Source of the DNA: a virus
Strand: one strand, 5' to 3'
IMG/VR virus record: IMGVR_UViG_3300032240_002557
Location: 1-64,000 of that record
DNA: 64,000 nt
The position numbers and the translations under genes are program-made. Below the pieces are notes generated by a model. The model was not told the origin of the DNA, did not search any database, and saw nothing but the letters and a program-made list of their open reading frames with translations. Positions 14,146-51,207 of this stretch are shown one piece after another (within the stretch, counting starts at the first letter, position 1; each line of letters starts with the position of its first letter).

Positions 14146-14151
14146 CTAAAT

Positions 14152-14931: not shown

Positions 14932-14949
14932 ACAAAAAGGTTTTATGTC

Positions 14950-14959: not shown

Positions 14960-14974
14960 GTGTTTTTAAAACCC

Positions 14975-15595
14975 TTATTTATAGACGTTTTCGTCTATAG
15001 TTGGATATGTTCTTTTAGGAAGTCCGGAATCTGATCCTGGATTATTAGGATAAAGGTCTTCGGCTGTTATTGGACCAAGTGGTGAAGCTGCCGGGTATAA
15101 ATTTTCATTTAAACTTGCTATCGTTTGTGGGTCTGATTTATACACATCATCCTTTACAGAATTGTATTTTCTATCAGGAACACCGCCGTCTAATCCAGGA
15201 ACATTTGGGTATAAATCTTGCTTAATAGTATTATAAGATCTTTTTGGAAGCCCACCATCGGTTCCCGGATTGTTTGGATATAAATCTTCTTCAAGTTTTG
15301 GTGTATTGTACAGATAATCGGGAACACCAAGTTTACTATTATTCAAATCCCCACCAACCTCTCTGTACTCATCATCTTTTAATGTTGGGTATAATCTATT
15401 AGGTAATCCGCTGTCTATTCCTGGGTTTGTTGGATACTTATCCTCTACGTTAAAAGGATTAGGAGCTTGTCCTGGTGGATAAACATTTCCACCTGGGGAA
15501 GATGGTATTGCAGGAACGCCAGGATAAACATCTTCTTTGATATCAGGATATTGCCTTTGACCCGGTCCGCCAAGTCCTTTGGATTGGGGTCTGTA
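14975..15595 (-). repeat. Imperfect ~23-aa peptide repeats (EDLYPNNPGTDGGLPKRSY-type)
   Basis: Four clear full copies and several partial (D/E)(D/N)xY copies in the translation. Confidence 0.8.
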
Positions 15596-34474: not shown

Positions 34475-35194
34475 ATGAAAGTTGTTAAATATTCAGAATT
34501 TAAACTGAAAGAATCTAAGGTTAATGAGGCTAAATATCTTATTATGGCTGAAAACCTTGATGCTCATCACCAAGACATGATCGCAAAAGGATTAAGTGAG
34601 TCTGAGATTAACGAAGGACTTGGTGATCTTTTAAGCTCTTTGGGTGGTGGTTTTACTGATAGATTAAAGAACTATGCAGCTGGTTGGTTACTTAAAAAGC
34701 TAGGATTACCTGCAGATAACATGTTTCTTTCAGAATGGGCAAAGAACATCGTGGAGAATATCTCATTCATGCACATTGGTAATTATTTTGGTAAAGGTTC
34801 TTGTAGATACTGGGCAGATGCTATAGGTAAAGGACTACTAGAGACGTTAGAAGAAAAAACCTTAGGACTTATTCTTTCTAAAGCTATCGGTATAGATGTT
34901 AACTTTAATAGCGGTTTAGGCGGTACGTTGATGGGTTCATTACGTGAGGCATTAACAAACTATATAAACAACACTGACTTTGTTAACAATTTATCTGCTA
35001 AATTAGAAGGAACAGTTTGCGGAGAGGGAACTTCATTTACTAATATATTTGGGGGAGGTAAAGTTTCCCCAAAGGATATAGCAGGTGCTGTTAAGACAAA
35101 AGAGGAAAACGCAGCATCTAATGCAGCAGGACTTGGAGATATAGTTTCTCCAGAAAAATCCGGAGGAATATTAAGCCTTTTGGGAATACAATAA
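34475..35194 (+). CDS. Putative internal virion protein (Gly/Leu-rich amphipathic), start probably 34475
   Basis: MKVVKYSEF...VNE|A and INE|GLGDLLSSLGGG; GGATATATAA upstream. Confidence 0.65.
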   Translation: MKVVKYSEFKLKESKVNEAKYLIMAENLDAHHQDMIAKGLSESEINEGLGDLLSSLGGGFTDRLKNYAAGWLLKKLGLPADNMFLSEWAKNIVENISFMHIGNYFGKGSCRYWADAIGKGLLETLEEKTLGLILSKAIGIDVNFNSGLGGTLMGSLREALTNYINNTDFVNNLSAKLEGTVCGEGTSFTNIFGGGKVSPKDIAGAVKTKEENAASNAAGLGDIVSPEKSGGILSLLGIQ

Positions 35195-35207
35195 AACATA
35201 GATCAAA

Positions 35208-35462
35208 ATGAACATTAAAGACGTTAAAAAAAGAGAGGTTTTAGACTTTAAGCAGTTTTTAAAAGTTGCTGCTGATCCGTGGAATAAAAAGAACCTTAGT
35301 AAGGAAGATAGAACAGGTGCACACGAGATAAAACTTGAAAAACCTTACGAGTATGTTGGATATGGTGATTCAATTTTTAAACACCAATCTAAAATAGATT
35401 ACCCAGGAACAGGAGCTCAGGAGTCAGGAATGGCTGCTAATTTGGGAACTCCTGCAGAATAG
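35208..35462 (+). CDS. Small hypothetical protein
   Basis: 84 aa; VLDFKQFLK near the N-terminus. Confidence 0.6.
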   Translation: MNIKDVKKREVLDFKQFLKVAADPWNKKNLSKEDRTGAHEIKLEKPYEYVGYGDSIFKHQSKIDYPGTGAQESGMAANLGTPAE

Positions 35463-35464
35463 AA

Positions 35465-35474
35465 AGATATATAG
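35465..35474 (+). promoter_or_regulatory. Candidate late promoter AGATATATAG
   Basis: Upstream of the acidic protein gene. Confidence 0.6.
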
Positions 35475-35491
35475 ATATAAATAAATACAAG

Positions 35492-36088
35492 ATGGAAAAA
35501 AAGATACTAAGTTTTGAAGAATTTTCTAAGCAATATGCTGAGGGAGCATTTGATCAAAACACAGATATGGAGGATTCCACACAAGAAACTCCGGATGAAA
35601 ACGTAGAAGATGACGGTGGCGCAGATTCTATAGATTTCACATCAGACGACGAGACTGAAGATGAAAACGAAGAAACAGACGGAGTTCCTGCAGATGACAT
35701 GGAAGATGATTCAGAAGATATGGATTCTGAAGATGAGGGGGATTCTGATAGTGATCTAGAAGATGCTGCTTCTGATGATGACGGTGAAGAAGAAGAGGAG
35801 TGGGAGGAAATGGAAGAAGACGAAGATTACGAGGAAGAAGAAATGGACGAGGAAGAAGAGGAGATGGAGGATTACGAGGAAGAAGAAATGGACGAGGAAG
35901 AAGAGGAGATGGAAGATTACGAAGAGGAAGAATGGGAAGAAGAGAACGAAAATGAGCATGAGCACGAAGAACATGAGTCTCATGAAGAAGAGCATGAAGA
36001 ACACGAGCACGAAGATGACGAAGAAGAAGATGAAATAGAGGGAGCAGAAGAAATTTACAACCCTGCATTCAACAGCTTTTTCAACTAA
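35492..36088 (+). CDS. Hyper-acidic (about 55% Asp+Glu) protein with capsid-targeting-like leader
   Basis: MEKKILSFEEFSKQYAE then Asp-rich, Glu-rich and His/Glu-rich blocks; has its own promoter motif and terminator. Confidence 0.75.
   Translation: MEKKILSFEEFSKQYAEGAFDQNTDMEDSTQETPDENVEDDGGADSIDFTSDDETEDENEETDGVPADDMEDDSEDMDSEDEGDSDSDLEDAASDDDGEEEEEWEEMEEDEDYEEEEMDEEEEEMEDYEEEEMDEEEEEMEDYEEEEWEEENENEHEHEEHESHEEEHEEHEHEDDEEEDEIEGAEEIYNPAFNSFFN
35825..35930 (+). repeat. 45-bp tandem repeat (DYEEEEMDEEEEEME, about 2.3 copies)
   Basis: GATTACGA recurs at 35825, 35870 and 35915 with near-identical intervening sequence. Confidence 0.85.
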
Positions 36089-36117
36089 TATTTAAATAGT
36101 ATTATATTATAGGAAAC

Positions 36118-36146
36118 AAGGGATCTTTCGATCCCTTTTTCTTTTT
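36118..36146 (+). terminator. Rho-independent terminator
   Basis: AAGGGATC-TTTC-GATCCCTT followed by a T tract. Confidence 0.8.
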
Positions 36147-36150
36147 ATAG

Positions 36151-36160
36151 GGATATATAG
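36151..36160 (+). promoter_or_regulatory. Candidate late promoter GGATATATAG
   Basis: Between the terminator and the rimK start. Confidence 0.7.
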
Positions 36161-36177
36161 GTTAACCTAAGCTATAG

Positions 36178-37650
36178 ATGGAAAATATACTAGAAGACAA
36201 TTTCATATTTCAGGGATCTAATAATACAGAGAAAGTTGAAAAAAAACCAATTTCTTTAATAATATTAACTACCAAATTAGAGGCTAAGCAAAAGACGTTA
36301 GCACCAACTGTAAAGAAAATGCAGGAAAAGTCTGCTTCTATGGGATTTAAATGTATAGTAATTAATACTTCTCAAGGAGAAATAGAAAAGACAGAAACGG
36401 GTAGCTTTTTCATCAGAAATAAAGGTAGTCAAAACAAGAGTGAAATTGATGTAAAGAACACAATTATTCTTGCTAGAAGATCTGCTATAAATTCAACAGC
36501 AGCCGTTAAATTTTTCGAAAAACTAGAATCCTTAGGTTTTGTGTCGGTTAACTCGCTAAAATCCGTTCTTCTTTGCGAAGATAAACTTGACACCGCGCAA
36601 AGACTTCAAGAAAAAGGAATACCTGTACCTAGAACAGCACTAATATCATCAGAGGATGATGTTGAAAATGCTATGAAAAAAATCGGGGGATCTTATCCTG
36701 TTGTTGTTAAGCTTTTAAATGGAACCAAGGGAATAGGTGTATTTCAAATAGATTCACATGCTTCGTTGCTTTCTACCTTACAAACTATTTGGAAGTTGTC
36801 TTCCGAAACCGAATTAATAGTTCAAGAAAAAATAGACGCAGATTCAGATCTAAGAATACATGTTCTTGGGGCGAGAGATGATAGTTCAGGCTATTCTGTT
36901 ATTGCTTCAATGAGAAGAAACAGAATAGAAAACGATTTCAGAACTAATGTTTCTTTAGGAGGTACTGCAGAAGCAATTAATATAGATCCAGAGATTGAAA
37001 AAATAGCAATAGAATCAGCAAAAGCAACAGGATGTTCTTGGTGTGGTGTTGATATTATTGTAGAAAAAAATACAGGCAAACCTTATGTACTTGAGGTTAA
37101 TGCATCAGCAGGTACCGATGGAATTGAAAATGCTACGGGATTAGACGTAACTGCTATAATTCTCGATTTTATACTGGACAAAAAGAATTGGAATTATCCA
37201 AGAAAACTTGTTGGATTCCGTGAGATTTTCACAGTGAAAGGTGTCGGCGATTTTATTGGAAAATTAGATACAGGAAACGGGGCAATTGGATGCTCAATTC
37301 ACGCAGATTATTCGGAAGAGACTGATGGATTCTTAAATTGGACTATCGGGGGAAAGGAATATAGTCACAGAATAGTAGAATACTCACATGCAGAAGTTGG
37401 GGATCAAACCGACAAAAGGCCTGTTATTCTAATGGATGTTGAATTTGGGGGAATGGTTTACAAGAAAGTTAAATTCTCTGTTGTTGACAGAACTAACAAG
37501 AGTACACCGATGTTAATCAATAGAACCTTTATGGAGCAAGCAGGTTTAATTGTTGATGCAAGTAAAACATTCTTACTTACAAAAGAACCAAATGGTTATT
37601 CACCGCTAGACGCAAAGGGAGATGCTACTGCGGGTATTACACTATTTTAG
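36178..37650 (+). CDS. rimK: RimK-family ATP-grasp ligase fused to a C-terminal RimB-like retropepsin protease domain
   Basis: CEDKLDT...GIPVPRT, YPVVVKLLNGTKGIGV, IVQEKI, DFRTNVSLGG, CGVDII...VLEVNAS; C-terminal VGFRE...GKLDTGNG...SIHA...KRPVI...DRT...MLINRTFM. Confidence 0.88.
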   Translation: MENILEDNFIFQGSNNTEKVEKKPISLIILTTKLEAKQKTLAPTVKKMQEKSASMGFKCIVINTSQGEIEKTETGSFFIRNKGSQNKSEIDVKNTIILARRSAINSTAAVKFFEKLESLGFVSVNSLKSVLLCEDKLDTAQRLQEKGIPVPRTALISSEDDVENAMKKIGGSYPVVVKLLNGTKGIGVFQIDSHASLLSTLQTIWKLSSETELIVQEKIDADSDLRIHVLGARDDSSGYSVIASMRRNRIENDFRTNVSLGGTAEAINIDPEIEKIAIESAKATGCSWCGVDIIVEKNTGKPYVLEVNASAGTDGIENATGLDVTAIILDFILDKKNWNYPRKLVGFREIFTVKGVGDFIGKLDTGNGAIGCSIHADYSEETDGFLNWTIGGKEYSHRIVEYSHAEVGDQTDKRPVILMDVEFGGMVYKKVKFSVVDRTNKSTPMLINRTFMEQAGLIVDASKTFLLTKEPNGYSPLDAKGDATAGITLF

Positions 37651-39076
37651 AATCTAGATATTCGGTATAACCTTCTTGGAAATAATTTAATGCATCTATT
37701 CTATATTGGGATGCATCTTTTACAATCTTCTCGTTTTTCAGTGGATGCTTTTTACGATCTATTACAGAGTCCGGTATTAAGCCTTTAAACGCACGCTTTA
37801 GTATTTCCTTATTCTTTCTTAAGTCAAAAGGTAATTGGAGCGCTAGCTGGATTAATTCAAGGTTTAAAAAGGGGTTACGAAGCTCTAGCGTATGTGCCAT
37901 GCTCATTTTATCAAGTCTAGGCAGGTGATAATGAGTTAATTCATGAAAAACATCTGATCCTTGAGAATCATATTCGTTTATTCTGCGATAACCTCCAAAC
38001 ATTTCATCAGCTCCATCCCCAGATAAGACTATTCTTGTATTAGTTCCTTTCTTGATTGCATCGAAGAGAAGATACTGGGGAACTACACTTCCCATATCAA
38101 TAGGGGATTCGTTCCATCTAAAATATAATTCAGGTAAGAATTTATCAAATTCTGGGTTATTTGCATCCATTTTATAATCCAAACGATTAACTTTAATACC
38201 CCAATACTTTTCGCATTCCTCGACATATTCGTTGTCCGGTCCATTGTTAATGGTGTACCAACTGACATCTGCACCAAGCTTCATAAGCAATCCGCCTATA
38301 ATAGAGGAGTCTAATCCCCCGGAGAGCAAGATAGAGATTGGATAATCCAAGCTTAATAGCCTATTTTTTGTCGATAGCTCAACTTTATTCCAAACCCAAT
38401 CAAGTAATCCATCTTCAGAATCAAATTGAAATATGGGCGCTTTAAATGCGAAATAAGGGCCATATTCTTGTTTGAAAGCCGGAGCAGCAAAATTCCACTT
38501 ATAAATGAAGTTTGGCTTTAGCTTTGTGATGTTTTCAAATGGCGTAGATTCATTAGAAACGTATCCCCATTTTCTAACACCCCCCATAAATGATTGATCA
38601 ACAAAAGAGTCTTCGTCAATTAATCCTTTCATCTCTGAGCATATTTCGCCCTTGTCGTTATAATAAAGACATTTCTTTCCTAGTGGATCAGTAAAGCAAA
38701 TAACTTCTTTTTTGGACATGTCAACTAGACAAATAGCCCAAAATCCATCCCAATTCTTTATATGAGGCTCGTATAATGCAGTAAACATCTCCAAGGATGC
38801 AAAGCTGAAGGTAGAGAACAGATTTACCAAGTATTCTGTGTCGGATCCAAAATCTGGGGGATAATTAAATATTTCCCCATTAAATAATAAATAGCGATCT
38901 TTTGATAACTCCACTGGTTGGATCCATCCATCACCGATAGCAGTCTGAATTGGTAACCTGTGATGACAAAGGGTTAAACCGCTGGCATCAGAATGTGTGT
39001 AATACTCTATCCCTCTATGAGCTATAGACTTAATTCTCTCCTCTGAAGGATTATGGGCAATAAGGATTCCACACAT
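37637..39076 (-). CDS. asnB: Asparagine synthetase B-like glutamine amidotransferase
   Basis: N-terminal MCGI (Ntn Cys), HHRL, FNGEIFNY, LLSGGLDSS, SGDGADEMFGGY. Confidence 0.9.
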   Translation of the reverse strand: MCGILIAHNPSEERIKSIAHRGIEYYTHSDASGLTLCHHRLPIQTAIGDGWIQPVELSKDRYLLFNGEIFNYPPDFGSDTEYLVNLFSTFSFASLEMFTALYEPHIKNWDGFWAICLVDMSKKEVICFTDPLGKKCLYYNDKGEICSEMKGLIDEDSFVDQSFMGGVRKWGYVSNESTPFENITKLKPNFIYKWNFAAPAFKQEYGPYFAFKAPIFQFDSEDGLLDWVWNKVELSTKNRLLSLDYPISILLSGGLDSSIIGGLLMKLGADVSWYTINNGPDNEYVEECEKYWGIKVNRLDYKMDANNPEFDKFLPELYFRWNESPIDMGSVVPQYLLFDAIKKGTNTRIVLSGDGADEMFGGYRRINEYDSQGSDVFHELTHYHLPRLDKMSMAHTLELRNPFLNLELIQLALQLPFDLRKNKEILKRAFKGLIPDSVIDRKKHPLKNEKIVKDASQYRIDALNYFQEGYTEYLDSKIV

Positions 39077-39615
39077 TATTTTAGATTTTTTATTATTGAT
39101 TGAAAATTAGAAAGAGATTCGGTGTCGAATTTATTTTCTAGCATAACTATTTTAACCCCCTTAGGAGATAGGTATTCTATGAATTCTAGAAATAGTTCTT
39201 TTTCCTCCGGTATTCTAGCATCCATATTATCCCAAACGTCTTTGGATCTTTCCTCCGTCGATGTTCCGGTTATGTATACAAATTGGGATCTTTTGAAAAG
39301 ATCCTGCTCCACCATATAATCCAATTCTTTAAAAACAGATTTTTTAGATACTCTCTTGTTTAGTATTCCCCAAACAGAATTAGTGATTACCCCTCTGTCC
39401 ATAATCAATGGACTTAAGAATCCATCTCTGTTTAACTGGTGTACCATTAATTCTTTACCTAGTCCGAGGTGATGCGTTTTATCCCCAGTAGCTGGCAAGC
39501 TTAAAGAATTGTATAGATTATTAAAGTCGAATTTGAATATAGGAACCCAGCTTTGTGAGTTAACAAAGAATGTCTTTCCTGACTTTCTGGCTCCTTCTAC
39601 AACAATAAGGGACAT
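39076..39615 (-). CDS. P-loop (d)NMP kinase-like protein
   Basis: IVVEGARKSGKT Walker A and IMDRG (thymidylate-kinase-like); translationally coupled to asnB. Confidence 0.65.
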   Translation of the reverse strand: MSLIVVEGARKSGKTFFVNSQSWVPIFKFDFNNLYNSLSLPATGDKTHHLGLGKELMVHQLNRDGFLSPLIMDRGVITNSVWGILNKRVSKKSVFKELDYMVEQDLFKRSQFVYITGTSTEERSKDVWDNMDARIPEEKELFLEFIEYLSPKGVKIVMLENKFDTESLSNFQSIIKNLK

Positions 39616-39663
39616 AAAATTTATATTTTATATCCCTAAATGTATTTATGTTTCGCGAGAAAA

Positions 39664-41847
39664 CTACGACAGAACTGAGACAAATTTCTTTCTAAAAGCG
39701 TCTATATCATCATTTACCCCGCCATACCAAGTTGACAATTTACTTGCTAAATGCTTATCTAAAGATTTTGAATATACTGTCTTGTAAGCTTTACTTAAGA
39801 TGCTAATTGAATCACTGCTCCAATTAATACAATCCTTACATGCTCTGCCTGGGTCAGAATCGAATTTACCAAAAGCAACAGCGTATTTAACAGGAACACC
39901 CGATTTCATCAGAATTGATAACCTATCTTTACTGCCATCGTTACCCTTGAATTCATCATTCTTTATGCTATAAAATCCTAGCATCTTATCAAACAATCTT
40001 AATGCCGTTCCGTTTGCATAGAACCTAATTCCATTTGCTGTTGCTACTGCCATTTGACCATTCTTGCCATAATCTGGATTTTCCGTTGCTCCTATCTCTT
40101 TAAGTTCTTTAACTGCTTGTTCTTTAGACCATTCTTGTTTTGCTTTAGCAACTGCATCATCGATCTGCTTCTTAACAGAGCCTGAAGAAATCTTTGGTGC
40201 AGCTTTCATGATTTCTTTAGCGTTCTTATTAAGAGTGCTTTTTGCTGCTTTAACATCTTCTTTTGTTGTTGGCTTAGGGCCATCACCGCTGGTTCTTCCA
40301 ACAGAAGCTTCTGCAGCTTTCAGATTGAATTCTTCCGAAACAGAAAAGGACTCTTTTAATTTATCGTCATGTGATGAAATCTTATCTATTAATTCTTGCG
40401 TGATATCACTAGATTTATCCTTAAGCTCAAATCCATTTTTTAGATATTTAATAAGAGCATCTGTTGATTTTCCAAAAATGCCATCTGTACCGTATTTAGC
40501 AAATTTGTCATATTCTTCAGATTTTCCTTTCAATCCCTTCATTTTGTCAATTGTCAGTTTTTGAAATTTCTTAATGTTATCCTTATCCTTGCTTCCTCTT
40601 TTGATTGGTTCTTTTATCTGAAGATCACTCTTAGTCGTCCCGCCATCTTTCTTACCTGCTTCTTCCTCCTTTTTCTTAGCATCCTCTGCTTGTTTCTTTG
40701 CAGTATCAACTTGGAGTTTAATTTTATAATTATTCATAGCAGTATCTGCCTCAATCTGTAAAGCCTTCTTAGCTCCTTCTGCTCTGTCTAAATGATCTTG
40801 CAAAGTAGGGACTGCGATTAATACATTAGAATAATCCGCTGATGCTTGTACTTCTGATTTATATGCTGTATTGAACTCTTCTAATTCGTTATTAAACAAT
40901 GCAACAACAGCATTTAATCTCTCTCTTTCAGCCCCCCAATTAACACCCTTTGGATCGATCCCTTCACCAAATTTAGTTTCAAGCGAATTAACTCTCTTGT
41001 AAATATTATTGAAAGCAGCTTCTTTATCTAAAGCTTTTAAATTTCTTTCACCTGGATTATTTCTAGCACTTGCTATTGTGTTCATTACAGAATCAAGTCT
41101 AGCTTTTAAAGATTCAATATTTGTAATAAAATCTTTTTTATCCCTGTTCGTTTTTCTGTCCTCCTTAGATCCAATTACAAAATCAAAAATACCTTCGTTT
41201 ACTATTTTAGAATATGTTTTAAAATCAACGCAGATGCTGCTATTAGAAAGATGCTCTAAAACGTTATCTGAATTGTATGAAACATCCTGATATGCAGATT
41301 CTTGAATTTTTATATCGTCGGAAAAAGCCTTGATATATTTTTGAAGAGCTAATTGTACTTCATCAGTCTGCTGTCCTATCACATCTCCAACCTCTTTTGC
41401 TTTTTTGGTAATATCATCTATTGCAGCAGTTTCTTCTGCTACCATTTTATTGAACTCTGAAAGCCATTCTTCAAATATTTTAGGATCATATTCTTTCTCT
41501 TGAGCAATCTCTTTTTTAAATCGATCATACTCAGCAACTATACCAGGTAAAACAACACTATTAACCTGAATATCTACGTTTTTAACAGTATCAATTTTAG
41601 CTCCAATTGCAGCTAAATTTGTTTTAAAAGATCTTCTAAAATCCCTTGCAACTTTAGTCGGCGGGTACGTAGACACTGCATATCCGAAATTGCTGATCAA
41701 TTCTTGAGTTATCTTGATCATAGTTCTTGCATAAGCTACATAGCCAAGTCCTTTATCAACGCTTGCTTCAGTAATGCTAGGGTGTACGTAACCTTCAGCT
41801 TTTTTTACAAGGCTTTCAAATAGTGGATTTACGATTTCGTTTCTCAT
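39664..41847 (-). CDS. Putative internal head/ejection protein with peptidoglycan-binding-like domain
   Basis: NPLFE|S leader, coiled coils, IKRGSK...IKKFQKL...DGIFGKST motif, internal DFKTYSKIVNE|GIFDF. Confidence 0.6.
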   Translation of the reverse strand: MRNEIVNPLFESLVKKAEGYVHPSITEASVDKGLGYVAYARTMIKITQELISNFGYAVSTYPPTKVARDFRRSFKTNLAAIGAKIDTVKNVDIQVNSVVLPGIVAEYDRFKKEIAQEKEYDPKIFEEWLSEFNKMVAEETAAIDDITKKAKEVGDVIGQQTDEVQLALQKYIKAFSDDIKIQESAYQDVSYNSDNVLEHLSNSSICVDFKTYSKIVNEGIFDFVIGSKEDRKTNRDKKDFITNIESLKARLDSVMNTIASARNNPGERNLKALDKEAAFNNIYKRVNSLETKFGEGIDPKGVNWGAERERLNAVVALFNNELEEFNTAYKSEVQASADYSNVLIAVPTLQDHLDRAEGAKKALQIEADTAMNNYKIKLQVDTAKKQAEDAKKKEEEAGKKDGGTTKSDLQIKEPIKRGSKDKDNIKKFQKLTIDKMKGLKGKSEEYDKFAKYGTDGIFGKSTDALIKYLKNGFELKDKSSDITQELIDKISSHDDKLKESFSVSEEFNLKAAEASVGRTSGDGPKPTTKEDVKAAKSTLNKNAKEIMKAAPKISSGSVKKQIDDAVAKAKQEWSKEQAVKELKEIGATENPDYGKNGQMAVATANGIRFYANGTALRLFDKMLGFYSIKNDEFKGNDGSKDRLSILMKSGVPVKYAVAFGKFDSDPGRACKDCINWSSDSISILSKAYKTVYSKSLDKHLASKLSTWYGGVNDDIDAFRKKFVSVLS

Positions 41848-42704
41848 TGTATTGTTCTTTTTACTTTCATTTTAAGTACGGATAACTTGTTGTTTAAATC
41901 AAGTAATGCTCTTTTATGTGCATCATTTAATTTATTTATTTGTTCTTCTGATAATCTATAAGAAGGTATATCACCACCCCTATAGGCTTTAGTTTTCAAA
42001 GATTTAAGATACATGATCTTTTCTTTATGCTTAGCATCAAAATCAACTTTCATAATTTGACCATCTTCAAGCATTTTTGCTAAATCTTTCTTAGGTAATG
42101 AATTGATGTCTTGAATGAATTCATTCAGAGGTTTATCAAACATACCCATAGTATATTCATCGTAATCTTCGTATGAAAATTCTCTATCCGAAAAACTTGG
42201 TCTAGAATTAACTTTCTGAGCTTGATCGTCCAGCTCTTTCCAGTGATTATAAAATTGTTCTTCATAATTATAATCTTTAAATCTTTTAGATTTTTCGTAT
42301 GCATATTGAGCTATTCTAGAATCTGCCTGAGCTTTCTCTTTATTATAAAAGGCTATTAGATCTGCATTCTTTTTGCATATTCTAGCAGCTTGATTTCCTA
42401 GAACCTTTACCTCTGCTGATTTTGCTGATTTTAGAGCATCTAATGCTCTTCTTGCCATAAATCCTTTATGCTTTGCATCGGTCATTTCTACAGGATTTCC
42501 TTTCCTCTGAGATTCACTAGAGAATACTATATAATTCAATTCATCAGATTGATCTAAGAATTTCTTTTCAAGCGCTTCCATATTAGAAATAAGGGCTGAA
42601 AGCTTTTGCTTGTCACCTCTAATAAACGAAGCAGCACCGCCTATAAGATCTTTTAATATGCCTTCGTTTATTCTACTTGATATGAAGTCTGAGTATTTCT
42701 TCAT
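41844..42704 (-). CDS. Putative internal head protein (helical)
   Basis: MKKYSDFISSRINE|GILKDLIGG; related to 42707..43876. Confidence 0.6.
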   Translation of the reverse strand: MKKYSDFISSRINEGILKDLIGGAASFIRGDKQKLSALISNMEALEKKFLDQSDELNYIVFSSESQRKGNPVEMTDAKHKGFMARRALDALKSAKSAEVKVLGNQAARICKKNADLIAFYNKEKAQADSRIAQYAYEKSKRFKDYNYEEQFYNHWKELDDQAQKVNSRPSFSDREFSYEDYDEYTMGMFDKPLNEFIQDINSLPKKDLAKMLEDGQIMKVDFDAKHKEKIMYLKSLKTKAYRGGDIPSYRLSEEQINKLNDAHKRALLDLNNKLSVLKMKVKRTIQ

Positions 42705-42706
42705 TA

Positions 42707-43876
42707 TTACGCAGCTTGCTTAATTTTTTCTTCAACTTCTGCCAAAACCCCTTCAATATCCGATGCCTCTCTGTAGATATTATCTTTATAATCTTTTATA
42801 CTATCAGGATTGTCTGCATTAGGTGTATTCTTAACTGGATACTCAATAAATTTCAATCTACTTACTCTTCTTTCAGCTTCTTTCAGTTTTGTTAGACATT
42901 TATCCTTAATCTGAACGTTTTCATTATCTGCTGTCTTAACTACTGATATTTTAGAAATTGCTATGTTCATCAGATTCATACAAATCTTTTTAAGATCGTC
43001 GAATGTTCTTTCTCTGTTTCTGTATTTATTAATTCCCCAGGCTTTAGTCTCAACAGATTTTTTCATCTCTTCAGATTCTTTCTTAATAAAATCGCTCAAT
43101 TCTTTAACTGATGCTAGGATCTCTTTTGAATAAGTCTCAAACACATTCTTAATTTTCTCAGAAGGCATTTTAGTAGTTTCATCTTTAGCTCCTAAATCTG
43201 TTTTGATCTTGTTTAAATCGTCTTGTGATTTTTTAAGGTCTTCTTCTGCTTTTTTAGGATCGCCTAACATATCCTGTATGCCTTTTAAGTACCCTTCTTC
43301 GTCAGAGGCAGCAACTAATTTCTTTTTAAATTCTGCTCTCATCTTCTTAGTCTCTACTGAATCCTCTGCTCTCTTTAAATTGTAATACTCAGATTTTCTA
43401 TTATTCTTCTTTGTTAGAATATTCACTTGTTTTTCTAATTCATCCATAATAGAATTATGCGATGATACTAAATCTTTTAATAACTTTTGGACTTTAACAA
43501 GTTTAACCCGAATCGAATCAAGTTCTGTTTTATCAGCTTTATCCATTCTTAGCTGAGCAAGTGCAGAGCTTAGCTTATAAAATTTATTCTCTGTTTCATG
43601 CTCGTCCTTAATGAACTTGATCTCTTCATCTTTCATTTGCTGAAGGATTTTGTCTATCTTACCTATATCACCTCCTAAATTCTTGGAAAGAAAATTCATA
43701 ATTTTATCCCCAATACCCTCGTTAATTCTATAAAGATTTTCACAAAGTACATCTTCATCAACTTTTGAATATTTACCGTTCATCAACTTCATCTTGGCAA
43801 TATCAACGTTACCGTATGATTCAATGATTGCTTTTTTACAATCTTCGTAAAAATTAAAATTTTCTAATAATTCCAT
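42707..43876 (-). CDS. Putative internal head protein (coiled coil)
   Basis: RINE|GIGDKIMNFLSKNLGGD; GGATATATAA upstream. Confidence 0.6.
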   Translation of the reverse strand: MELLENFNFYEDCKKAIIESYGNVDIAKMKLMNGKYSKVDEDVLCENLYRINEGIGDKIMNFLSKNLGGDIGKIDKILQQMKDEEIKFIKDEHETENKFYKLSSALAQLRMDKADKTELDSIRVKLVKVQKLLKDLVSSHNSIMDELEKQVNILTKKNNRKSEYYNLKRAEDSVETKKMRAEFKKKLVAASDEEGYLKGIQDMLGDPKKAEEDLKKSQDDLNKIKTDLGAKDETTKMPSEKIKNVFETYSKEILASVKELSDFIKKESEEMKKSVETKAWGINKYRNRERTFDDLKKICMNLMNIAISKISVVKTADNENVQIKDKCLTKLKEAERRVSRLKFIEYPVKNTPNADNPDSIKDYKDNIYREASDIEGVLAEVEEKIKQAA

Positions 43877-43891
43877 CTTACAACTTTTTCT

Positions 43892-43901
43892 TTATATATC
43901 C
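43892..43901 (-). promoter_or_regulatory. Candidate late promoter GGATATATAA
   Basis: Restarts transcription immediately after the capsid terminator. Confidence 0.7.
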
Positions 43902-43924
43902 CAACCCCAAAGGGAAAGGCAATA

Positions 43925-43952
43925 AAAAACCCCTGATCTCTCAGGGGTTTTT
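43925..43952. terminator. Rho-independent terminator after the major capsid gene (potentially bidirectional)
   Basis: AAAAACCCCTGA-TCTC-TCAGGGGTTTTT perfect inverted repeat. Confidence 0.88.
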
Positions 43953-43976
43953 CTATTTTAGGTGAATCGATTAAGA

Positions 43977-45719
43977 TTAAGCGATACCGCCTGCTGGCAC
44001 TTGAGCGAAGAAAGTCAAGTACATAGTTTGAGGGTGGTGTCCAGCCTCTACTAATGCATATCTTGATTTTACTGCGATCTTTGGTGACATTGTACCTTCA
44101 GAGATAGTCTGAATTGATTCAGCCATCATGTAAGGCATAAATTTGATACCTGGTTCGTCATCAGCACCTTTTCTTCCAATCAATACTCTCGTATCTCCGA
44201 AAGACATGTTTTGATCAACATAAACAGTCATACCAGCGATTGAACCAACTGGGTATAAAGTACCGTTATTTTGAGTTAACGTGTTTGTGAAAGGAGCGAA
44301 TGTGAATTGGCTGATATCTTGTAAAGCAGAAGCTACTTGAGAGTTAGTAACGATGAAGTTAGCAGGTCCTCTTCTTCCTCTGTTTGCTACTACGTTAGCA
44401 GCAGCTAAGATTCTTGAGAATAATCTTCTTTGAATAGTTGATTGGTTCTCGTATCCGCCTGAAGCAGGTCCATCAGGTTGGTTGATAGTAACTGATCCGT
44501 TATCCTTACCGATGTAAGACTTATCGTTACCAGATCCACCGATCTCTAATGTGATGTTTAATGAGTTGTTAGATGCACCACCTAATTCAGTGTTTGCAAA
44601 CTCATAGTGGTTAGACCATCCTAAAGCAAATGCTCTAGATAAGATGTGCTTGTTAATAGCTTGAGAAACCTCGTTAACAAGTGCGTTCTCGATCATAGAA
44701 ACTACGTCGATACCGAATTGCTTGTTCAAATCTTGGATTTGCTCAGTAGTAACAGAAGCAGCAACTTGGAATGTACCAGCCTCTACAAACTTAGTGAATG
44801 TAGAAAGACCTAATGACTTGAAGTAAGTGCTTTCTGCAGTTCCTCTTGACATTGGATCGTAAGCCTTAGTACCATCTACGTATGGTCCTTGCCATGCTGC
44901 TGTGTTATCTAAACCAGCACCAGTAAATCCTTGTACGTGATCTTCTAAAGTTTTAACTAAAGTAGCCGCGCCATTTGAATAACCTGCTGTTGCAGAAGCT
45001 GTGAAGCTTGAACCGCCCCAAGTACCTGAATAGATAACAGAGTTAGCGTTAACTGCATCAGCGATTGAATAACCAGCAGATAATGCAGTAACTTGGAAAA
45101 TAGGGAAACCGTCAATTCTTGAATTACCGATGAACTTAGCAACTAATTTGCTAGTACCACCTGTAACTGATACAGAACCTGATAATCCGCTAGCACCGAT
45201 CAAATAGTTTGTACCAACTGTTAAACCAACAACTGGAGAAGCTACTGATGTAGGAACTTTGATTAAATCAGGAGCGTTAGCTGTGTTAGGAGATGTAGTA
45301 TCAGTACCGGTTAATTTACCGCCTGCATATACATAATCTAAGTAAGATAATACGCCTGTAGGACCAGACATTGGGATAACTGGAACGATATCAAAACCTA
45401 CTGTTTTAGCAGCTACTTGAATAGCTAAAGGTAAAAGAGAAGGGAATTTATCGCCAGAACCAAGACCTGTTCCAGAATAAGAACCGCCAGCATAGAAACC
45501 AGCAGCACCACCGTTCAAACCTACGTTTGAAGCTGGAGATACTTGGCCCATACCGTTTAATACGCCTAGAGAGTTATACGCTCCGGCAGATTCGTTTAGA
45601 GAGTGATAGTGGCAATATGTTGTTAACCAGTCTAATTTTCCTCTCTCTTGAATACCTGTTTTGCTCTCTAAGATAGGAGCCCAGGTTTCATAGATTTCAT
45701 GTTTGTTAATTAGTTGCAT
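43977..45719 (-). CDS. gp23: Major capsid protein (T4 gp23-like)
   Basis: WAPIL, FDIVPVIPMSGPTG, TTEQIQDL...GID, IANRGRRG-type VANRGRRGPANFIV, FMPY...MSPKIAVKSRYAL; strong codon bias; followed by a terminator. Confidence 0.93.
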   Translation of the reverse strand: MQLINKHEIYETWAPILESKTGIQERGKLDWLTTYCHYHSLNESAGAYNSLGVLNGMGQVSPASNVGLNGGAAGFYAGGSYSGTGLGSGDKFPSLLPLAIQVAAKTVGFDIVPVIPMSGPTGVLSYLDYVYAGGKLTGTDTTSPNTANAPDLIKVPTSVASPVVGLTVGTNYLIGASGLSGSVSVTGGTSKLVAKFIGNSRIDGFPIFQVTALSAGYSIADAVNANSVIYSGTWGGSSFTASATAGYSNGAATLVKTLEDHVQGFTGAGLDNTAAWQGPYVDGTKAYDPMSRGTAESTYFKSLGLSTFTKFVEAGTFQVAASVTTEQIQDLNKQFGIDVVSMIENALVNEVSQAINKHILSRAFALGWSNHYEFANTELGGASNNSLNITLEIGGSGNDKSYIGKDNGSVTINQPDGPASGGYENQSTIQRRLFSRILAAANVVANRGRRGPANFIVTNSQVASALQDISQFTFAPFTNTLTQNNGTLYPVGSIAGMTVYVDQNMSFGDTRVLIGRKGADDEPGIKFMPYMMAESIQTISEGTMSPKIAVKSRYALVEAGHHPQTMYLTFFAQVPAGGIA

Positions 45720-45732
45720 TGTTTTATGTAAC

Positions 45733-47805
45733 TTATTTTTTAAATCTAACTTCTAGTGCTTCTGAAAGATTTTTTAAATACTCGCTGGAAACACCTTTTG
45801 GTTGATTCTCTTGTTTTTGGGATTCGTCTATTCTTTCGACGTTTGCCTTAGATGCACCGATACCTCTTGTTGCCCAGAAATTCTGGATTTGATAAGGTGT
45901 GTCTAATTTATAGAATTTGCTCTGTGCCATGATTGAAGCTTTTTGACCCTCATTCATTGACTCCCAAGAGTTTCTATATTTTTCTGGCATAAGATCTAGG
46001 AATTTTTCACCTGATTGATTTTGCTCATTTAAGGTTTTACCCATGATATCAATTACCTCTTTTTCGGATGAGTAATTGCTCTCGTTAAGTGCTTTTGCTG
46101 CCTTTTGTTTTTGGCCTTCGTGCATTGCTAAGAATTGATCTTGATTCTCTTTGCTCATAAGCTTTAAGAAAGGATAATTTTTTTGCTCTGCTATTTGTTC
46201 TGTCTTTTGTTTATTGACAGTTTCTAACAAGTTGTCTATTTTAGAAGAAATTCCAGTGTAATCACCAGCAAATCCTGAAGTGTTTGCACTTTCAGAAATA
46301 GCTTTAGTTACTGCTTCTTTAACTTCTTTTGTTCCGTTAGCTGTATTCACTGTTTCAGCAATGTATTCAGCATAACTAATATTGTTAGCTAATTTCTCAG
46401 CTAAGTATTCACTGTAATGAAGTGATTTGTCTAAATTCTCACCTAAGTAATCAGAGTAAGCTAAACCTTTATCTAGGTTTTCTGCTAAGTACTCAGAATA
46501 AGAGATATTCTTATCTAAGTTCTCTGCTAGGTATTCAGAATAAGCTAAACCTTTATCTAGGTTTTCTGCTAAGTACTCAGAATAAGAGATATTCTTATCT
46601 AAGTTCTCTGCTAAGTATTCTGCATAAGAAATGTTCTTATCTAAATTCTCAGCTACGTATTCTGTATATTTAATGTTTTTGTCTACGTTCTCTGCTACGT
46701 ATTCTGCATAAGCAATAGATTGATCAACTTTCTCTGTTAAACCTTTAACTGCTGACATGTTGCTATCAACATTCTCTGCAATATACTCAGAATAAGAAAT
46801 GTTATTGTCTAAATGCTCTGCTAAATATTTAGCATAAGAAATAGATTTATCAAGATTTTCAGCAAGATATTTTGAATATGAAGTTGTGTCTTCTAAGCTT
46901 TCAGCTAAGTATTCGCCATACTTAATAGAAGCTTCAAGGTTTTCTGCCAAATAATCAGCATATCTCTCTAACTTTTCTACTCTTTCCTCAAGGGAAGAAC
47001 TTGCTTGTGTTTTAGAAGATTCTTTAACGCCTCTTAATGATTCAATAGACCCTTTAATAGTGTCCATTTCTTTTTTAATTAGCTTAGAATATCCATTCAT
47101 TTCTTCCGCTGTAACGAAATTATTTTCCATGATTAAATTCTTATTTGGCTCCTTATTTAGAAGCTTTTGTATCTTTTCTTGATCTTTTATTCTATATATC
47201 TTAAAATTAGAGTTTTCCTCTATTCCTAAGCTTTCATTCATTAAAGGAAGACCTTTTAAAATAGATTCATTTTTAATTTTTTCACTAACTTCGTGTCCAA
47301 GACTTTCATATACTCTTTCTAATTGAGCATTTTCAAATCCAGGGTCAGCAACTAGATCGTAAGTAAAGATCTTCTTGATTTGTACTTTTTTGTTCTCTAA
47401 CACATTACCAGCTGCTCTTGAAGAGATTGAAACTGGAATACCTGCATCAACTAAAGATTTAGCAATTTTACCTGCTGGTGTATCTAAAAGTCTTACTTTA
47501 ATCCTTAATGTTCTATCGTTTTGATCATAGTTAAGTTCTTCAACTAGGTGAGAGATGTTCTTCAAAGAAACATCAAACTCTTTTGGGTGATCTAATTCAC
47601 CTACTAATCTTTTTTGCTCTATCTTTTCTTTTAAATATTGCAAATGTGGAAGATACTCTCTTTCCTCGTAGATTCTTTGATTAGAATTCTCCTTACCGAA
47701 AACTGCTGCTATCCCCTCAAGGAAATAGTCATTACCTGATTTTTCAGTCTTCAGGTTTTGCGAAGATTTTTCTAAGACTAAAACGAATTCGTTATTAAGG
47801 TTCAT
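45733..47805 (-). CDS. gp21: Prohead protease (gp21-like) fused to a scaffold domain (gp22-like)
   Basis: LEGIAAVFGKENSNQRIY, GELDHP (His), ISSRAAG (Ser), YDLVADPGF, then a long helical repeat region. Confidence 0.9.
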   Translation of the reverse strand: MNLNNEFVLVLEKSSQNLKTEKSGNDYFLEGIAAVFGKENSNQRIYEEREYLPHLQYLKEKIEQKRLVGELDHPKEFDVSLKNISHLVEELNYDQNDRTLRIKVRLLDTPAGKIAKSLVDAGIPVSISSRAAGNVLENKKVQIKKIFTYDLVADPGFENAQLERVYESLGHEVSEKIKNESILKGLPLMNESLGIEENSNFKIYRIKDQEKIQKLLNKEPNKNLIMENNFVTAEEMNGYSKLIKKEMDTIKGSIESLRGVKESSKTQASSSLEERVEKLERYADYLAENLEASIKYGEYLAESLEDTTSYSKYLAENLDKSISYAKYLAEHLDNNISYSEYIAENVDSNMSAVKGLTEKVDQSIAYAEYVAENVDKNIKYTEYVAENLDKNISYAEYLAENLDKNISYSEYLAENLDKGLAYSEYLAENLDKNISYSEYLAENLDKGLAYSDYLGENLDKSLHYSEYLAEKLANNISYAEYIAETVNTANGTKEVKEAVTKAISESANTSGFAGDYTGISSKIDNLLETVNKQKTEQIAEQKNYPFLKLMSKENQDQFLAMHEGQKQKAAKALNESNYSSEKEVIDIMGKTLNEQNQSGEKFLDLMPEKYRNSWESMNEGQKASIMAQSKFYKLDTPYQIQNFWATRGIGASKANVERIDESQKQENQPKGVSSEYLKNLSEALEVRFKK
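46350..46963 (-). repeat. About 15 tandem 14-aa repeats (YSEYLAENLDKNIS) including a near-exact 84-bp duplication
   Basis: 42-bp periodicity; the stretch beginning at 46457 recurs at 46541. Confidence 0.9.
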
Positions 47806-47824
47806 TCTAAGTTTTTTTATTTAA

Positions 47825-47834
47825 GTATATATCC
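47825..47834 (-). promoter_or_regulatory. Candidate late promoter GGATATATAC
   Basis: Upstream of the protease-capsid operon. Confidence 0.7.
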
Positions 47835-47851
47835 GTTTTTCGTTAAGCTTT

Positions 47852-50443
47852 TTATGGTTTAGGCATATTTGATGCCTCGGGTGCTTTCGAAGTAGATTTT
47901 TTGCCTTCTTCTTCGCTCTCTCCTTTTTTAACTATTTTAACACCCTGGTTAGCTAGATCAAGTTGTTCTTCTGTAATATCTTTGATATTTTCTGCTAGTT
48001 TACTCTCATTTGAGTTCAATCTATCAATAGCTTCTTTAACAAGTGTTAATCCATCAGAATAATTAACAGTATCTCCTTCCTCTAAACTTTTTGCATCAAA
48101 ATCTGGGAAATTGTGGCAGTCTCTTTTTAGAGTTGAATGAATTTCTTCTATCTCTGATTCAAAAGTTTGCTCTTCACTTTTTGCGTACCTTTCTTTAAAA
48201 TCTGCCCAAGCAGATATTGCTGCTGTTCTTTCTTTATTAGCGGTCCATGCACCTTTTAGTAAACAAAGTGTAGCCATAATTGCTTGAAGATCTTCTCTTG
48301 AAACGAATCCGTCTATTGTATTAATCATTCCTCTTGTTATCTTAAGCATACCTGCTCTTGAAATAAATCCATTACCAACTGATATTGCTACCTTTGTTCT
48401 GGTTCCCCACCAAGCTGTTCCCATTCCTGATAATGCGCCTGCTCCTACTGCTATAGGTACTGATCCAACTGCAAGTGCTGCTCCCCCACTAGCTGCTGCA
48501 GCTACCGTTGAGCCTAATCCAAGTGAAAGAGCTAAACCCCCTGTTGATGCTGCTGCAGAAGTTGCTGCTGCTCCCATTAAAGCACCAGATCCTGTTGTTA
48601 CCGCTCCTATTGCACCGCCTACGCCTGTTGCTGTTCCTGCAGCTACTGCTGGAACTGCAGCACCTAATGTAAGTGCACTAGCAATTACAATTGCTGTTAC
48701 AGCTCCTGTAACTTCAGCAACCTGTAAGGCTGCCTCACCCGATGATTCGTCATAATTAATGACATAAATTCCGTTGTCTGCTGGTTTTAATCCTTGCCAT
48801 TTCTTTTCCTCAACTTTCTTATTATCATCATTATCTACTATTACGTCTTGAATTATTTTATCATCTTTATAAGTAGAACATACAGCATCAGCTATAGAAA
48901 GTTTATTTTTATCGCTACTTCCTTCACCACTTACCTGAGGCTTGCTACCGACATTTTTTGCTTTATCAACTAAAGATTTTTCAGCATCTTTCACTGCGTC
49001 AAACACGCCTTCATTAAGTATCTTAGAGAAACTATCAAAAGAAACGACTGATGTTCCTTCATTATATTCTGCTTCAAATATTTTGCTTTCTAATACTTTA
49101 CTGTAATCTAAAGAATCTTTTACTGGTTTAACAGGTGCATCAATTGTTTGTATTACTCTTTGTCCTCCTACGATCTTATTGTGCATGTCCTGTGTTAATT
49201 CACCGGTTGCACTAAATGCGGATGATTTTGTCAAGTAAGCATAATAAATATTAGCTAACTTAGATGTTACCTTACCGTATTTACCATCTGCTCCTCCTGC
49301 TTTGTTAATCAATTCAGCAACACAAGGTCCAAGCTTCATTAAAGCCTCTTGTACCTCAACTACAACATCGCATTTAGTACTACTAATTTGAATAGGGAAA
49401 GCACAATCTGTTGTTGTAACAACATTATCATCTCCAGTTTTCTTCTTCTTTTTCTTCTTTTTGTTCGGATCAACTGTTGTTTCTGCTCCTTCTACACCTG
49501 TACTTGACTGTGCTAAAGCAACGCATTTTCCTTTATTAGGATCGTATGCTTGACCAACAGGACAAATAACTATAGGTTGTGGAGGTGTAGGAACGTTTCC
49601 TATTCTATATTTAAGCTTATTAAATTCTTCTCTCTGTCTTGTTATCTCTGTAAGAATGTTTTGTACTTGTACTTTAAAATCCGATCTTTTTAAATTTCCA
49701 GAAGCTGTAGGAACCTTACCAGCTCCGAATAAACCTTTATTACCACCAATTGGCTGAATTTTTCTAGCTTTATCTAAGAGCTGTTGTGCTTGGTCTGAAA
49801 ATCTTTGGATGTCTGCATTTCCTGCATATGCCTTATTGCCCATTGCTGCTGAGGTTTCACCAGCAAACGATGTTGCAGCATCTAAAGCATTCTTAGCATA
49901 CTGTAAGAATTTATTGTCTACTCTAACGTCTTGGGTTTGTCCTTCCTCACCGGTTAAGTCTGTTTGTTGCTCAGAAAGATATTTAGTTAAAAGACTTTCG
50001 TTTTGTTGAAGTTGAGCTTTATTAGCTTGTAAAGCAGAGATTGTAGTTCCTGCGTAAGCATTCATATCATCTAAAACCTTTTTAAAGTTTTTAGCGTCTT
50101 CCCCAACTAAAGGTTTTAATTGATCAAATAAAGTCCCTAAATATGTCTTTGTTTGTTGATAAGCAGCTTCTTGAGCTTTATCTTTCATAGCGTATTCGTC
50201 AATCTTCTTAATAAATTCTTGTCTAAGACCATCGATAGAGCTAACTTGTAATAGTTTATCTACAAAAACTTTAAATCCATCAGGAGTTTTAATTGACTCG
50301 TCTGATCCCATAAGAATAACATTAACAAGAGTATCATAGATAGTTCTGCTAATTAATCCTGGGTTGTTTTTGGTCTCCTGTTCGTATAACTCTTTCTTTA
50401 GAGATTCGAAAATAGGATTGTATCCGTTGTAAATTCCTGACAT
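47852..50443 (-). CDS. Putative internal/ejection protein with peptidoglycan-binding-like motif and a long Ala/Gly hydrophobic segment
   Basis: NPIFE|S leader, VQEALMKLG...ADGKYGKVT, SFDSFSKILNE|GVFDAV, about 100 uncharged residues (approx. 48405-48712). Confidence 0.6.
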   Translation of the reverse strand: MSGIYNGYNPIFESLKKELYEQETKNNPGLISRTIYDTLVNVILMGSDESIKTPDGFKVFVDKLLQVSSIDGLRQEFIKKIDEYAMKDKAQEAAYQQTKTYLGTLFDQLKPLVGEDAKNFKKVLDDMNAYAGTTISALQANKAQLQQNESLLTKYLSEQQTDLTGEEGQTQDVRVDNKFLQYAKNALDAATSFAGETSAAMGNKAYAGNADIQRFSDQAQQLLDKARKIQPIGGNKGLFGAGKVPTASGNLKRSDFKVQVQNILTEITRQREEFNKLKYRIGNVPTPPQPIVICPVGQAYDPNKGKCVALAQSSTGVEGAETTVDPNKKKKKKKKTGDDNVVTTTDCAFPIQISSTKCDVVVEVQEALMKLGPCVAELINKAGGADGKYGKVTSKLANIYYAYLTKSSAFSATGELTQDMHNKIVGGQRVIQTIDAPVKPVKDSLDYSKVLESKIFEAEYNEGTSVVSFDSFSKILNEGVFDAVKDAEKSLVDKAKNVGSKPQVSGEGSSDKNKLSIADAVCSTYKDDKIIQDVIVDNDDNKKVEEKKWQGLKPADNGIYVINYDESSGEAALQVAEVTGAVTAIVIASALTLGAAVPAVAAGTATGVGGAIGAVTTGSGALMGAAATSAAASTGGLALSLGLGSTVAAAASGGAALAVGSVPIAVGAGALSGMGTAWWGTRTKVAISVGNGFISRAGMLKITRGMINTIDGFVSREDLQAIMATLCLLKGAWTANKERTAAISAWADFKERYAKSEEQTFESEIEEIHSTLKRDCHNFPDFDAKSLEEGDTVNYSDGLTLVKEAIDRLNSNESKLAENIKDITEEQLDLANQGVKIVKKGESEEEGKKSTSKAPEASNMPKP

Positions 50444-50454
50444 TTTAATTTTTT

Positions 50455-51207
50455 TTATTCGCTATAAATTTTGTCGTAAGAAGCTGATATTAGGTCGATC
50501 AGTTTCTGTATATATCCTTCGTTTCTGAGCTTTTTGAATACCAAATTCTCTACGGAGAATTCCCCCCTCTCTGCTAATCCTTCTTTACGCATCTTCATGA
50601 TCTGGCTTTTAACTTTTTCTGAGTGTTCGTATAATTCTCTAGGGGTAATATCCGATTGATCGCTAGTCCCGTTTAGTAATGCCTGTAATTGATTTACATC
50701 ATTAACAATACCTTCAAATTTGGTCTGTACGTCTCTCTCGTCTATCTGTGGAGGATTGTACTTAGGTACCCTGATCCAATCATTGTTTAATAGGGAGAAT
50801 AGACCTGATGCAACGTGTTGCTCTCTAATATCCTGGAGATAAAGCTCAACATCGTGCCCTCTTATAATTACGTTATGCCTTAGATTCCAAATGAATCTTT
50901 GACCGTCTACTGATTTTTTAACTAAATCTATGTCCGGATTAATTTTAGAGAAGTCTATTAGAACATGAACGTCAAGATCTGATTTTTCTGTCCAATTATA
51001 ATTTGCAAGAGATCCTGTAAGTTGGATGTCTTCAATAGGAATGTCAAGTTTAAAAACTGCGTAAAATTCTTCAGCAATCTTAAGAAGCTTAGCTCTGACG
51101 CTTTGGTCAAAGTTTAAATTCTCCCAAAAGAGTGTATTCAATTCCCCTTGATAGAATTGATCCTCATTTAAAACCCAATTAGTAAAATTTTTGATGCGAC
51201 TACCCAC
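50455..51207 (-). CDS. Pol-beta superfamily nucleotidyltransferase with capsid-targeting-like leader
   Basis: LTGSLANYNW...SDLDVHV (hGS...DxD) and VELY; leader MGSRIKNFTNWVLNE; GTG start. Confidence 0.8.
   Translation of the reverse strand: MGSRIKNFTNWVLNEDQFYQGELNTLFWENLNFDQSVRAKLLKIAEEFYAVFKLDIPIEDIQLTGSLANYNWTEKSDLDVHVLIDFSKINPDIDLVKKSVDGQRFIWNLRHNVIIRGHDVELYLQDIREQHVASGLFSLLNNDWIRVPKYNPPQIDERDVQTKFEGIVNDVNQLQALLNGTSDQSDITPRELYEHSEKVKSQIMKMRKEGLAERGEFSVENLVFKKLRNEGYIQKLIDLISASYDKIYSE

Follow-up and report, generated by a model that had tools for sequence, protein, structure and literature searches.

What happens to the proteins packed into the head of a huge phage when its prohead matures? 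The question is raised by a 64,000-nucleotide stretch of viral DNA (positions 1 to 64,000 of IMG/VR record IMGVR_UViG_3300032240_002557, called the window here). Five of its open reading frames (ORFs) contain the residues Asn-Glu-Gly directly followed by a hydrophobic or amphipathic segment. An earlier note, made from the sequence of the window, proposed that the prohead protease of a T4-like phage cuts between Glu and Gly and in this way arms a family of ejection proteins with Gly-initiated, membrane-inserting helices, or else uncovers a shared signal for their ordered exit. We argue that the motif is better read as two separate things. The upstream half would be a maturation-cleavage signal much like the one T4 uses. 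The downstream half would be an additional helix carried by only two families of cargo protein, and we give about even chances to the idea that it mainly docks to another protein or serves assembly. Throughout, ORFs are named by their lower window coordinate, a slash marks a predicted cut, P1 and P1' are the residues on either side of it, and Φ is a hydrophobic residue.

The motif and its occurrence

Each of the five strings is found in the ORF to which it had been assigned (34475, 39664, 41844, 42707 and 47852). The DNA positions given for two of them fit as well, the 39664 site occupying 41164-41217 and the 47852 site 48980-49033. The predicted protease sites do directly precede hydrophobic or amphipathic segments. 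In the pattern described for the residues after the cut, G-[ILV]-x-(x)-D-hydrophobic, the D-hydrophobic part is loose for 42707, which reads G-I-G-D-K-I. A sixth, variant cassette, YAE/GAFD, lies in the acidic ORF 35492.

Enrichment was judged on the analysed contig that holds the window, which is 99.9 kb long and has 97 non-overlapping ORFs (31.9k amino acids), by 100 within-protein shuffles of these ORFs. The string [ILV]NEG[ILV] occurs six times against a shuffle mean of 0.34 (maximum 3). The longer [ILV]NEG[ILV]x(1-2)D occurs five times against a mean of 0.05 (maximum 1). It must be noted that the five sites are not fully independent. The alignment of the paralogues 41844 and 42707 begins at the motif (E 1.5e-8), and 39664 is distantly paralogous to 47852 (E 0.002; their hidden Markov model families merge), so there are about three lineages. 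Recent gene conversion between the cassettes is ruled out by their DNA. The 54-nucleotide cassettes are pairwise identical at no more than 31/54 positions, so their likeness is held at the peptide level and is not that of a recent copy.

The probable cleavage signal and the protease

In T4 the prohead protease gp21 cuts after L/I-x-E, and the capsid targeting sequence (CTS), 10 residues long, is by itself enough for foreign proteins to be targeted and processed (PMC9026906). The sites described here follow the T4 rule narrowed to aliphatic-N-E, with a small residue next. Among 111 unique sequences of the 41844/42707 family P1 is Glu in 100%, P3 is L, I, V or M in 100%, and P2 is Asn in 74%; P1' is Gly, Ala or Ser in 88 of 95 distinct sites. 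Outside the site, members of this family fall to 14-18% identity with the window protein. The leaders look like those of T4 too. In a direct comparison with the T4 ipI, ipII and ipIII records, IPII and IPIII read MKTYQEFIAE/A and ORF 41844 starts MKKYSDFISSRINE/G. Across the related loci there are 125 non-redundant leaders of this CTS-like type. A stricter leader pattern gives 202 matches that fall into 12 BLAST clusters, nine of them with at least two members. A Sec or lipoprotein signal was considered for these leaders and rejected because they have no hydrophobic core. Leader-like F..F/Y...ΦNE stretches (here the slash separates two alternatives) precede even the internal sites of 39664 and 47852. 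Since the sites fit the T4 rule and sit behind leaders closely resembling the T4 CTS, we consider it very likely that the leader-proximal sites are cut as predicted. The two internal sites are probably cut as well, and here our confidence is somewhat lower.

A suitable enzyme is encoded in the same place. ORF 45733 matches Peptidase_S77 (PF03420) with 34 bits (cutoff 27), and it also matches PF20034, phrog_207 (E 2.7e-35) and the T4 gp21 structure PDB 5jbl (E 1e-3). Its gene is upstream of the capsid gene. The tail of this protein consists of about 14 tandem 14-residue repeats (42-nucleotide period, window positions 46363-46851, residues ~282-491), and each repeat bears one aliphatic-A-E site. 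The density of L/I-x-E is 6.2 per 100 residues, against 1.37 for the proteome. The tail is probably a self-destructing scaffold that is cut into 14-mers. The protease-tail junction reads ΦNE/S-Φ-G-Φ, and the site at the C-terminus of the protease, NE/GQKQS, is conserved.

The major capsid protein has a predicted propeptide site of the same kind, HSLNE/SAGAY. Among 80 related loci in IMG/VR, all those inspected have this site unchanged. The loci have capsid identities of 63-86%, lie on contigs of up to 434 kb, and keep the gene order around the capsid gene. The T4 counterpart gp23 is cut at LTE65/A. Positional equivalence of the two cuts is not claimed, because the alignment of T4 gp23 with the window capsid protein is unreliable at the N-terminus.

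The capsid protein also says what kind of phage this is. Among GenBank phages it best matches LR756500, which is uncultured and 462 kb long, and the Lak megaphages (43% identity), and jumbo phages of Bacteroidota come next. Given these matches and the length of the related contigs, we assign the contig to a huge phage, of which it is a piece, and not to a classical T4-like phage as had been supposed. The gp21-type protease and the gp23-type capsid protein are nonetheless present. A megablast search with the whole region gave no match, and tblastn of 41844 and 34475 against GenBank phages gave none either. Pfam and PHROGs have no family for any of the five motif-bearing proteins.

The segment after the predicted cut

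The Gly that would become the new N-terminus, with which the helices of the earlier note begin, is not conserved. P1' is Gly in 47%, Ala in 25% and Ser in 22% of the 41844/42707 family, while in the 34475 family it is Asp in 15 and Gly in 12 of 38. Over all leaders the counts are Ala 28, Ser 24, Gly 22, Glu 13 and Asp 10. This looks like an ordinary preference of the protease for a small residue.

What follows P1' must be considered separately for each protein. In the 41844/42707 family no other 18-residue window of the protein is as conserved as the NE and the next 16 residues. In 41844 an amphipathic helix takes up residues 15-29. Its hydrophobic positions are 16, 17, 20, 24 and 28, with 23 and 27 partly so, and its polar face is kept in identity (D18 65%, N22 78%, S25 77%). 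Gly30 follows as a hinge and is conserved in 95% of the 111 sequences. In the 34475 family the conservation of the post-cut segment is above average without being the peak. Conservation of the segment is thus strong in one family and moderate in another, and it is lacking in the two remaining proteins. In 39664 the stretch GIFDFVIG (residues 219-226; 41193-41170) is an 8-residue insertion found in this phage only, and the closest relatives read ..INE/AKEDR. The insertion is placed exactly at the predicted new N-terminus, as if a hydrophobic cassette had recently been gained at a cleavage site. In 47852 the near relatives have ..LTE/AVYLTED and more distant ones differ again. Of the supposed family of five helices there thus remain a helix module conserved in two cargo families and two look-alikes that are lineage-specific.

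Hydrophobicity and helical moment were computed on the Eisenberg scale in 14-residue windows and compared with all windows of the contig proteins. Four of the five segments rank in about the top 1% for hydrophobicity and moment taken jointly (joint tails 0.0014 for 34475, 0.0002 for 41844, 0.0062 for 42707 and 0.0068 for 47852). The 47852 segment is amphipathic, not hydrophobic. The 39664 segment is unremarkable, since it is only an 8-residue hydrophobic stub of low moment. Hydrophobicity and moment are ordinary at the capsid and protease-junction sites. Clade-wide, 77% of the 41844/42707-family sites and 100% of the 34475-family sites are in the joint top 5%. The first family has a net charge of about +1.2 over 18 residues and the second one of -1.4; neither fits a cationic helix of the antimicrobial type.

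Most of the leader-bearing families do not have the helix. These include clusters of ~90 and 180-280 residues and several smaller ones, and their post-cut ends are hydrophilic or acidic. The median joint tail is 0.012 in the 34475 family and 0.051 in the 41844/42707 family, against 0.16-0.39 in the other leader families. Because those other families have hydrophilic ends, and because the CTS of T4 suffices alone for targeting and processing, our preferred reading is that the helix belongs to the mature protein, as an add-on module, and lies outside the cleavage signal. ΦNE/S-type sites are also kept in the head regions of LR756500 and Tenacibaculum phage PTm1, where the helix module is not evident. 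In PTm1 (L084) ORF-299 (11169-12002) and the capsid protein (13992-15842) have a near-identical stretch directly after a predicted E/S cut, ..E/SYG.Q.P....GMGAV. It may be that a second head protein here carries a capsid-propeptide-like module.

AlphaFold2 (AF2) models were made for two of the proteins. With a 40-sequence alignment, 41844 is modelled as a helical bundle with a mean pLDDT (predicted local distance difference test) of 85. The leader forms a helix at residues 4-10, residues 11-16 (RINE/GI) are non-helical, and the next helix starts at residue 17. It is only from about residue 30 that the pLDDT exceeds 90, and at residues 16-26 it is below 50, so in this model the post-cut helix does not pack against the body. 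The 34475 model has a pLDDT of 65 and places a helix at 42-55 that spans the cut and follows a propeptide helix. Masking by the propeptide was not read from this model because it is too weak. A Foldseek search of the 41844 model against PDB and BFVD returned only generic helical bundles (E at least 0.1). Gly-zipper and colicin leads from the ESM Atlas, for 34475 and the C-terminal fragment of 47852, were discarded as unusable since all scores were below 0.85, which is chance level.

The candidate cargo proteins

The genes of the predicted cleavage system in the window are collected in Table 1.

Table 1. Protease, capsid protein and candidate cargo proteins, with window coordinates and predicted cuts.
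Product	Coordinates	Strand	Predicted cut or supporting match
Gly-rich protein, 239 residues; CTS-like leader; hydrophobic Gly-rich new N-terminus	34475..35194	+	Two: VNE/A after residue 18; INE/G after residue 47 (G48 = 34616-34618)
Extremely acidic protein, 198 residues; CTS-like leader; without hydrophobic helix	35492..36088	+	YAE/GAFD after residue 17
Protein of 727 residues	39664..41847	-	Internal, VNE/G after residue 218
Basic helical internal-protein candidate, 286 residues; CTS-like 14-residue leader	41844..42704	-	INE/G (G15 = 42662-42660)
Paralogue of 41844, 389 residues; 53-residue propeptide; same amphipathic element	42707..43876	-	INE/G (G54 = 43717-43715)
Gp23-type major capsid protein	43977..45719	-	Propeptide, LNE/S after residue 43 (codons 45599-45591); PF07068, E 2.2e-40
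Prohead protease; gp21-type N-domain (~residues 1-190) and scaffold-like repeat tail	45733..47805	-	PF03420, PF20034, phrog_207
Protein of 863 residues	47852..50443	-	Internal, LNE/G after residue 478 (G479 = 49009-49007)

The predicted mature products of 41844, 42707 and 39664 are basic (isoelectric point, pI, 8.8-9.2), and that of 35492 has a pI of about 4. Among all predicted mature products only the C-terminal product of 47852 has hydrophobic Gly/Ala-rich stretches of transmembrane (TM) grade, at residues 571-604 and 647-674. Such stretches recur in its relatives, usually below threshold. The two stretches lie in a hydrophobic Gly/Ala-rich region some 100 residues long. ORF 47852 also has a run of eight Lys (residues ~325-335), and Gly-rich regions related to its own are found in ORFs 55743 and 70408 of the contig. 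In 34475 the motif GLGD is seen again near the C-terminus (residue 219), and relatives of this protein with shorter leaders have a single cut. Next to 47852, positions 50455-51207 encode a 250-residue protein with a leader ending ..VLNE/D. It has weak matches to nucleotidyltransferase folds (PF01909 and PF22600, both below cutoff; phrog_36119), and it may be an enzyme loaded into the head by the same leader tag.

Comparison with known systems

The closest comparison is with T4, where gp21 processes the internal proteins IPI, IPII and IPIII and also Alt. In both there is a gp21-family protease gene beside a gp23-type capsid gene, and the cut follows aliphatic-x-Glu and precedes a small residue. 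Both use short N-terminal leaders with aromatics at about positions 4 and 7, and in both one kind of leader is found on many unrelated cargo proteins. The acidic ORF 35492 resembles T4 gp67 in its leader-like start and acidic tail, and the basic mature products of 41844, 42707 and 39664 resemble the T4 internal proteins. There are differences as well. Here P2 is mostly Asn, the protease is fused to a repeat scaffold, and leader-like sites are also found deep inside proteins of 700-860 residues. The helix module is another difference, since the new N-termini of the T4 gp21 substrates (IPI-III, gp67, gp68, gp22 and gp24) are neither amphipathic nor hydrophobic, while two cargo families here carry a post-cut helix. 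What we have is a variation on the CTS and prohead-protease system of T4 and the giant phages, and what sets it apart is this conserved module.

The earlier note knew of no description of such helices, and there is partial precedent in the giant phage SPN3US. Its abundant ejection proteins gp53 and gp54 have mature N-termini that were mapped by mass spectrometry (PMC10052503), and we compute 14-residue moments of 0.50 and 0.59 for them. Mature gp47 begins with a predicted transmembrane helix, which Ali et al. 2017 speculated might contact the host membrane (PMC5694885), so the idea itself is partly precedented. Like the candidates here, gp47, gp53 and gp54 (and the inner-body proteins of phiKZ and 201phi2-1) are head-internal, are often tandem paralogues, and are cut after Glu; SPN3US also prefers Ser at P1'. 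Its motif is different (A-x-E), its propeptides are 111-254 residues long, and no common post-cut motif or module has been described there. An hhalign comparison of our 40-sequence family alignment with SPN3US gp53 and gp54 found no homology (probability 0.1-0.2%).

By analogy, the nearest mechanism is that of adenovirus protein VI. Its lytic helix (residues 34-54) begins at the AVP cut that removes pVIn, and the uncleaved N-terminal peptide keeps the helix hidden in the hexon cavity (10.1101/857581). Protein VI, the nodavirus gamma peptide and the fusion peptides of enveloped viruses differ from our case in several ways. They belong to eukaryotic viruses, the proteins and proteases are unrelated, and their lysis was demonstrated by experiment, whereas our case is argued from sequence. 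The phage segments are also not cationic and their Gly is not conserved. The G-Φ-F-D-Φ starts resemble, in their first five residues, two amphibian antimicrobial peptides beginning GLFD. These are presumably aurein 1.2 and citropin 1.1, and the likeness is a resemblance only.

Weighing the explanations

The sequences themselves show the motif, its enrichment, how it is conserved, and the families to which the protease and the capsid protein belong, while we infer cleavage, packaging and a function for the helix. The explanation we favour, at about an even chance, is that the cassettes are maturation-cleavage signals on proteins loaded into the prohead and that the post-cut helix mainly docks to protein or serves assembly. 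The leader, with its aromatics about three positions apart and its aliphatic-N-E end, would dock the precursor to the prohead core as in T4. The gp21-type protease, encoded two genes away, would then remove the leader after the Glu. The small P1' residue (Gly in this phage; Gly, Ala or Ser in relatives) would reflect what the protease prefers and not a conserved functional Gly. In 41844/42707 and 34475 only, the mature N-terminus would be formed by the separate downstream module, an amphipathic or hydrophobic helix some 15 residues long that a near-invariant Gly connects to the body. This helix would contact a conserved partner (core, shell or portal) or self-associate, and cleavage would free or reposition it. 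If the helix acts on a membrane after ejection, this would be a secondary role, and the look-alike segments of 39664 and 47852 would be recent lineage-specific additions. Docking to protein is favoured over lipid because the charge is not cationic and because the polar face is conserved in identity; together these favour a specific protein partner over generic lipid binding, and they are not decisive. Several points weigh against this explanation. True fusion peptides can have highly conserved polar positions too, which makes the conservation compatible with a membrane role. Hydrophobicity and moment put four of the five segments in the top ~1%, the 47852 product carries TM-grade stretches, and the experimentally mapped SPN3US ejection proteins also start with amphipathic or transmembrane helices. 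These three points keep a membrane role alive. Gly at all six sites of this phage has a chance of about 1% given the family frequencies; this hints at something lineage-specific and is left unexplained.

One can imagine instead, with the earlier note, that cleavage arms ejected internal proteins with N-terminal helices that insert into the host inner membrane and help to breach or cross it. This has a good deal behind it. The segments abut the predicted cut, their joint tails are small (0.0002-0.007 in four of five), and 77% and 100% of the sites of the two families are among the top 5%. In the 41844 model the helix stands free of the body. Three mature products are basic like the T4 internal proteins, 47852 has its TM-grade stretches, and there are the precedents of SPN3US gp47, gp53 and gp54 and of adenovirus VI, besides the likeness to the amphibian peptides. 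However, the Gly is not conserved, the charge is close to neutral or negative, the polar face is kept in identity, the 39664 stub is of low moment and unique to this phage, and the 47852 segment is not conserved. We regard it as rather unlikely. Another scenario gives the post-cut residues no function of their own. They would reflect the S' subsite preference of the protease or the context of a helix start, and their likeness would come from the co-evolution of substrate and protease. The small P1' residues, the Ser preference in SPN3US, the six Gly sites and the resemblance of the protease-tail junction to G-Φ-G-D starts all fit this. We nevertheless find it improbable. The capsid site, the protease site NE/GQKQS and leader families reading NE/EDSE.. 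and NE/SESE.. have no hydrophobic residues at P2'-P4', and the conservation runs at least 16 residues past the cut with helical periodicity, which is far beyond the footprint of a subsite. Finally, there may be no cleavage at all, and NE-G would then be a motif that paralogous helical proteins conserve for capping a helix or as a linker. AF2 does place the 34475 site inside a helix, at low confidence. Such a scenario would have to account for an invariant Glu and an aliphatic P3 in fast-evolving, unrelated families, all beside a gp21-type protease, for the same motif at the capsid propeptide, and for leaders like the T4 CTS. We consider it highly improbable.

Implications for huge phages

Even if docking is the main role of the helix, a bolder possibility should be stated for this clade of huge phages. 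A modular helix would be kept inactive by a CTS-like leader, be unmasked by the prohead protease on packaged and ejected proteins, and then insert into the host inner membrane, where it would help to build or open the route by which DNA enters. We think this doubtful. If it were true, phages would have their own counterpart of adenovirus protein VI, evolving through the gain of short hydrophobic cassettes where proteins are cut, with the 39664 insertion as an example. Both candidate roles should be open to direct test, because a sharply defined, conserved 15-residue module lies exactly at the predicted cut and relatives offer natural variants with and without it. The leader with its ΦNE site could act as a cargo-loading tag for the whole clade, like the CTS in T4. 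The module bears on a poorly understood step in contractile-tailed phages and above all in huge ones, which is how DNA, together with internal proteins by the hundred, crosses the inner membrane.

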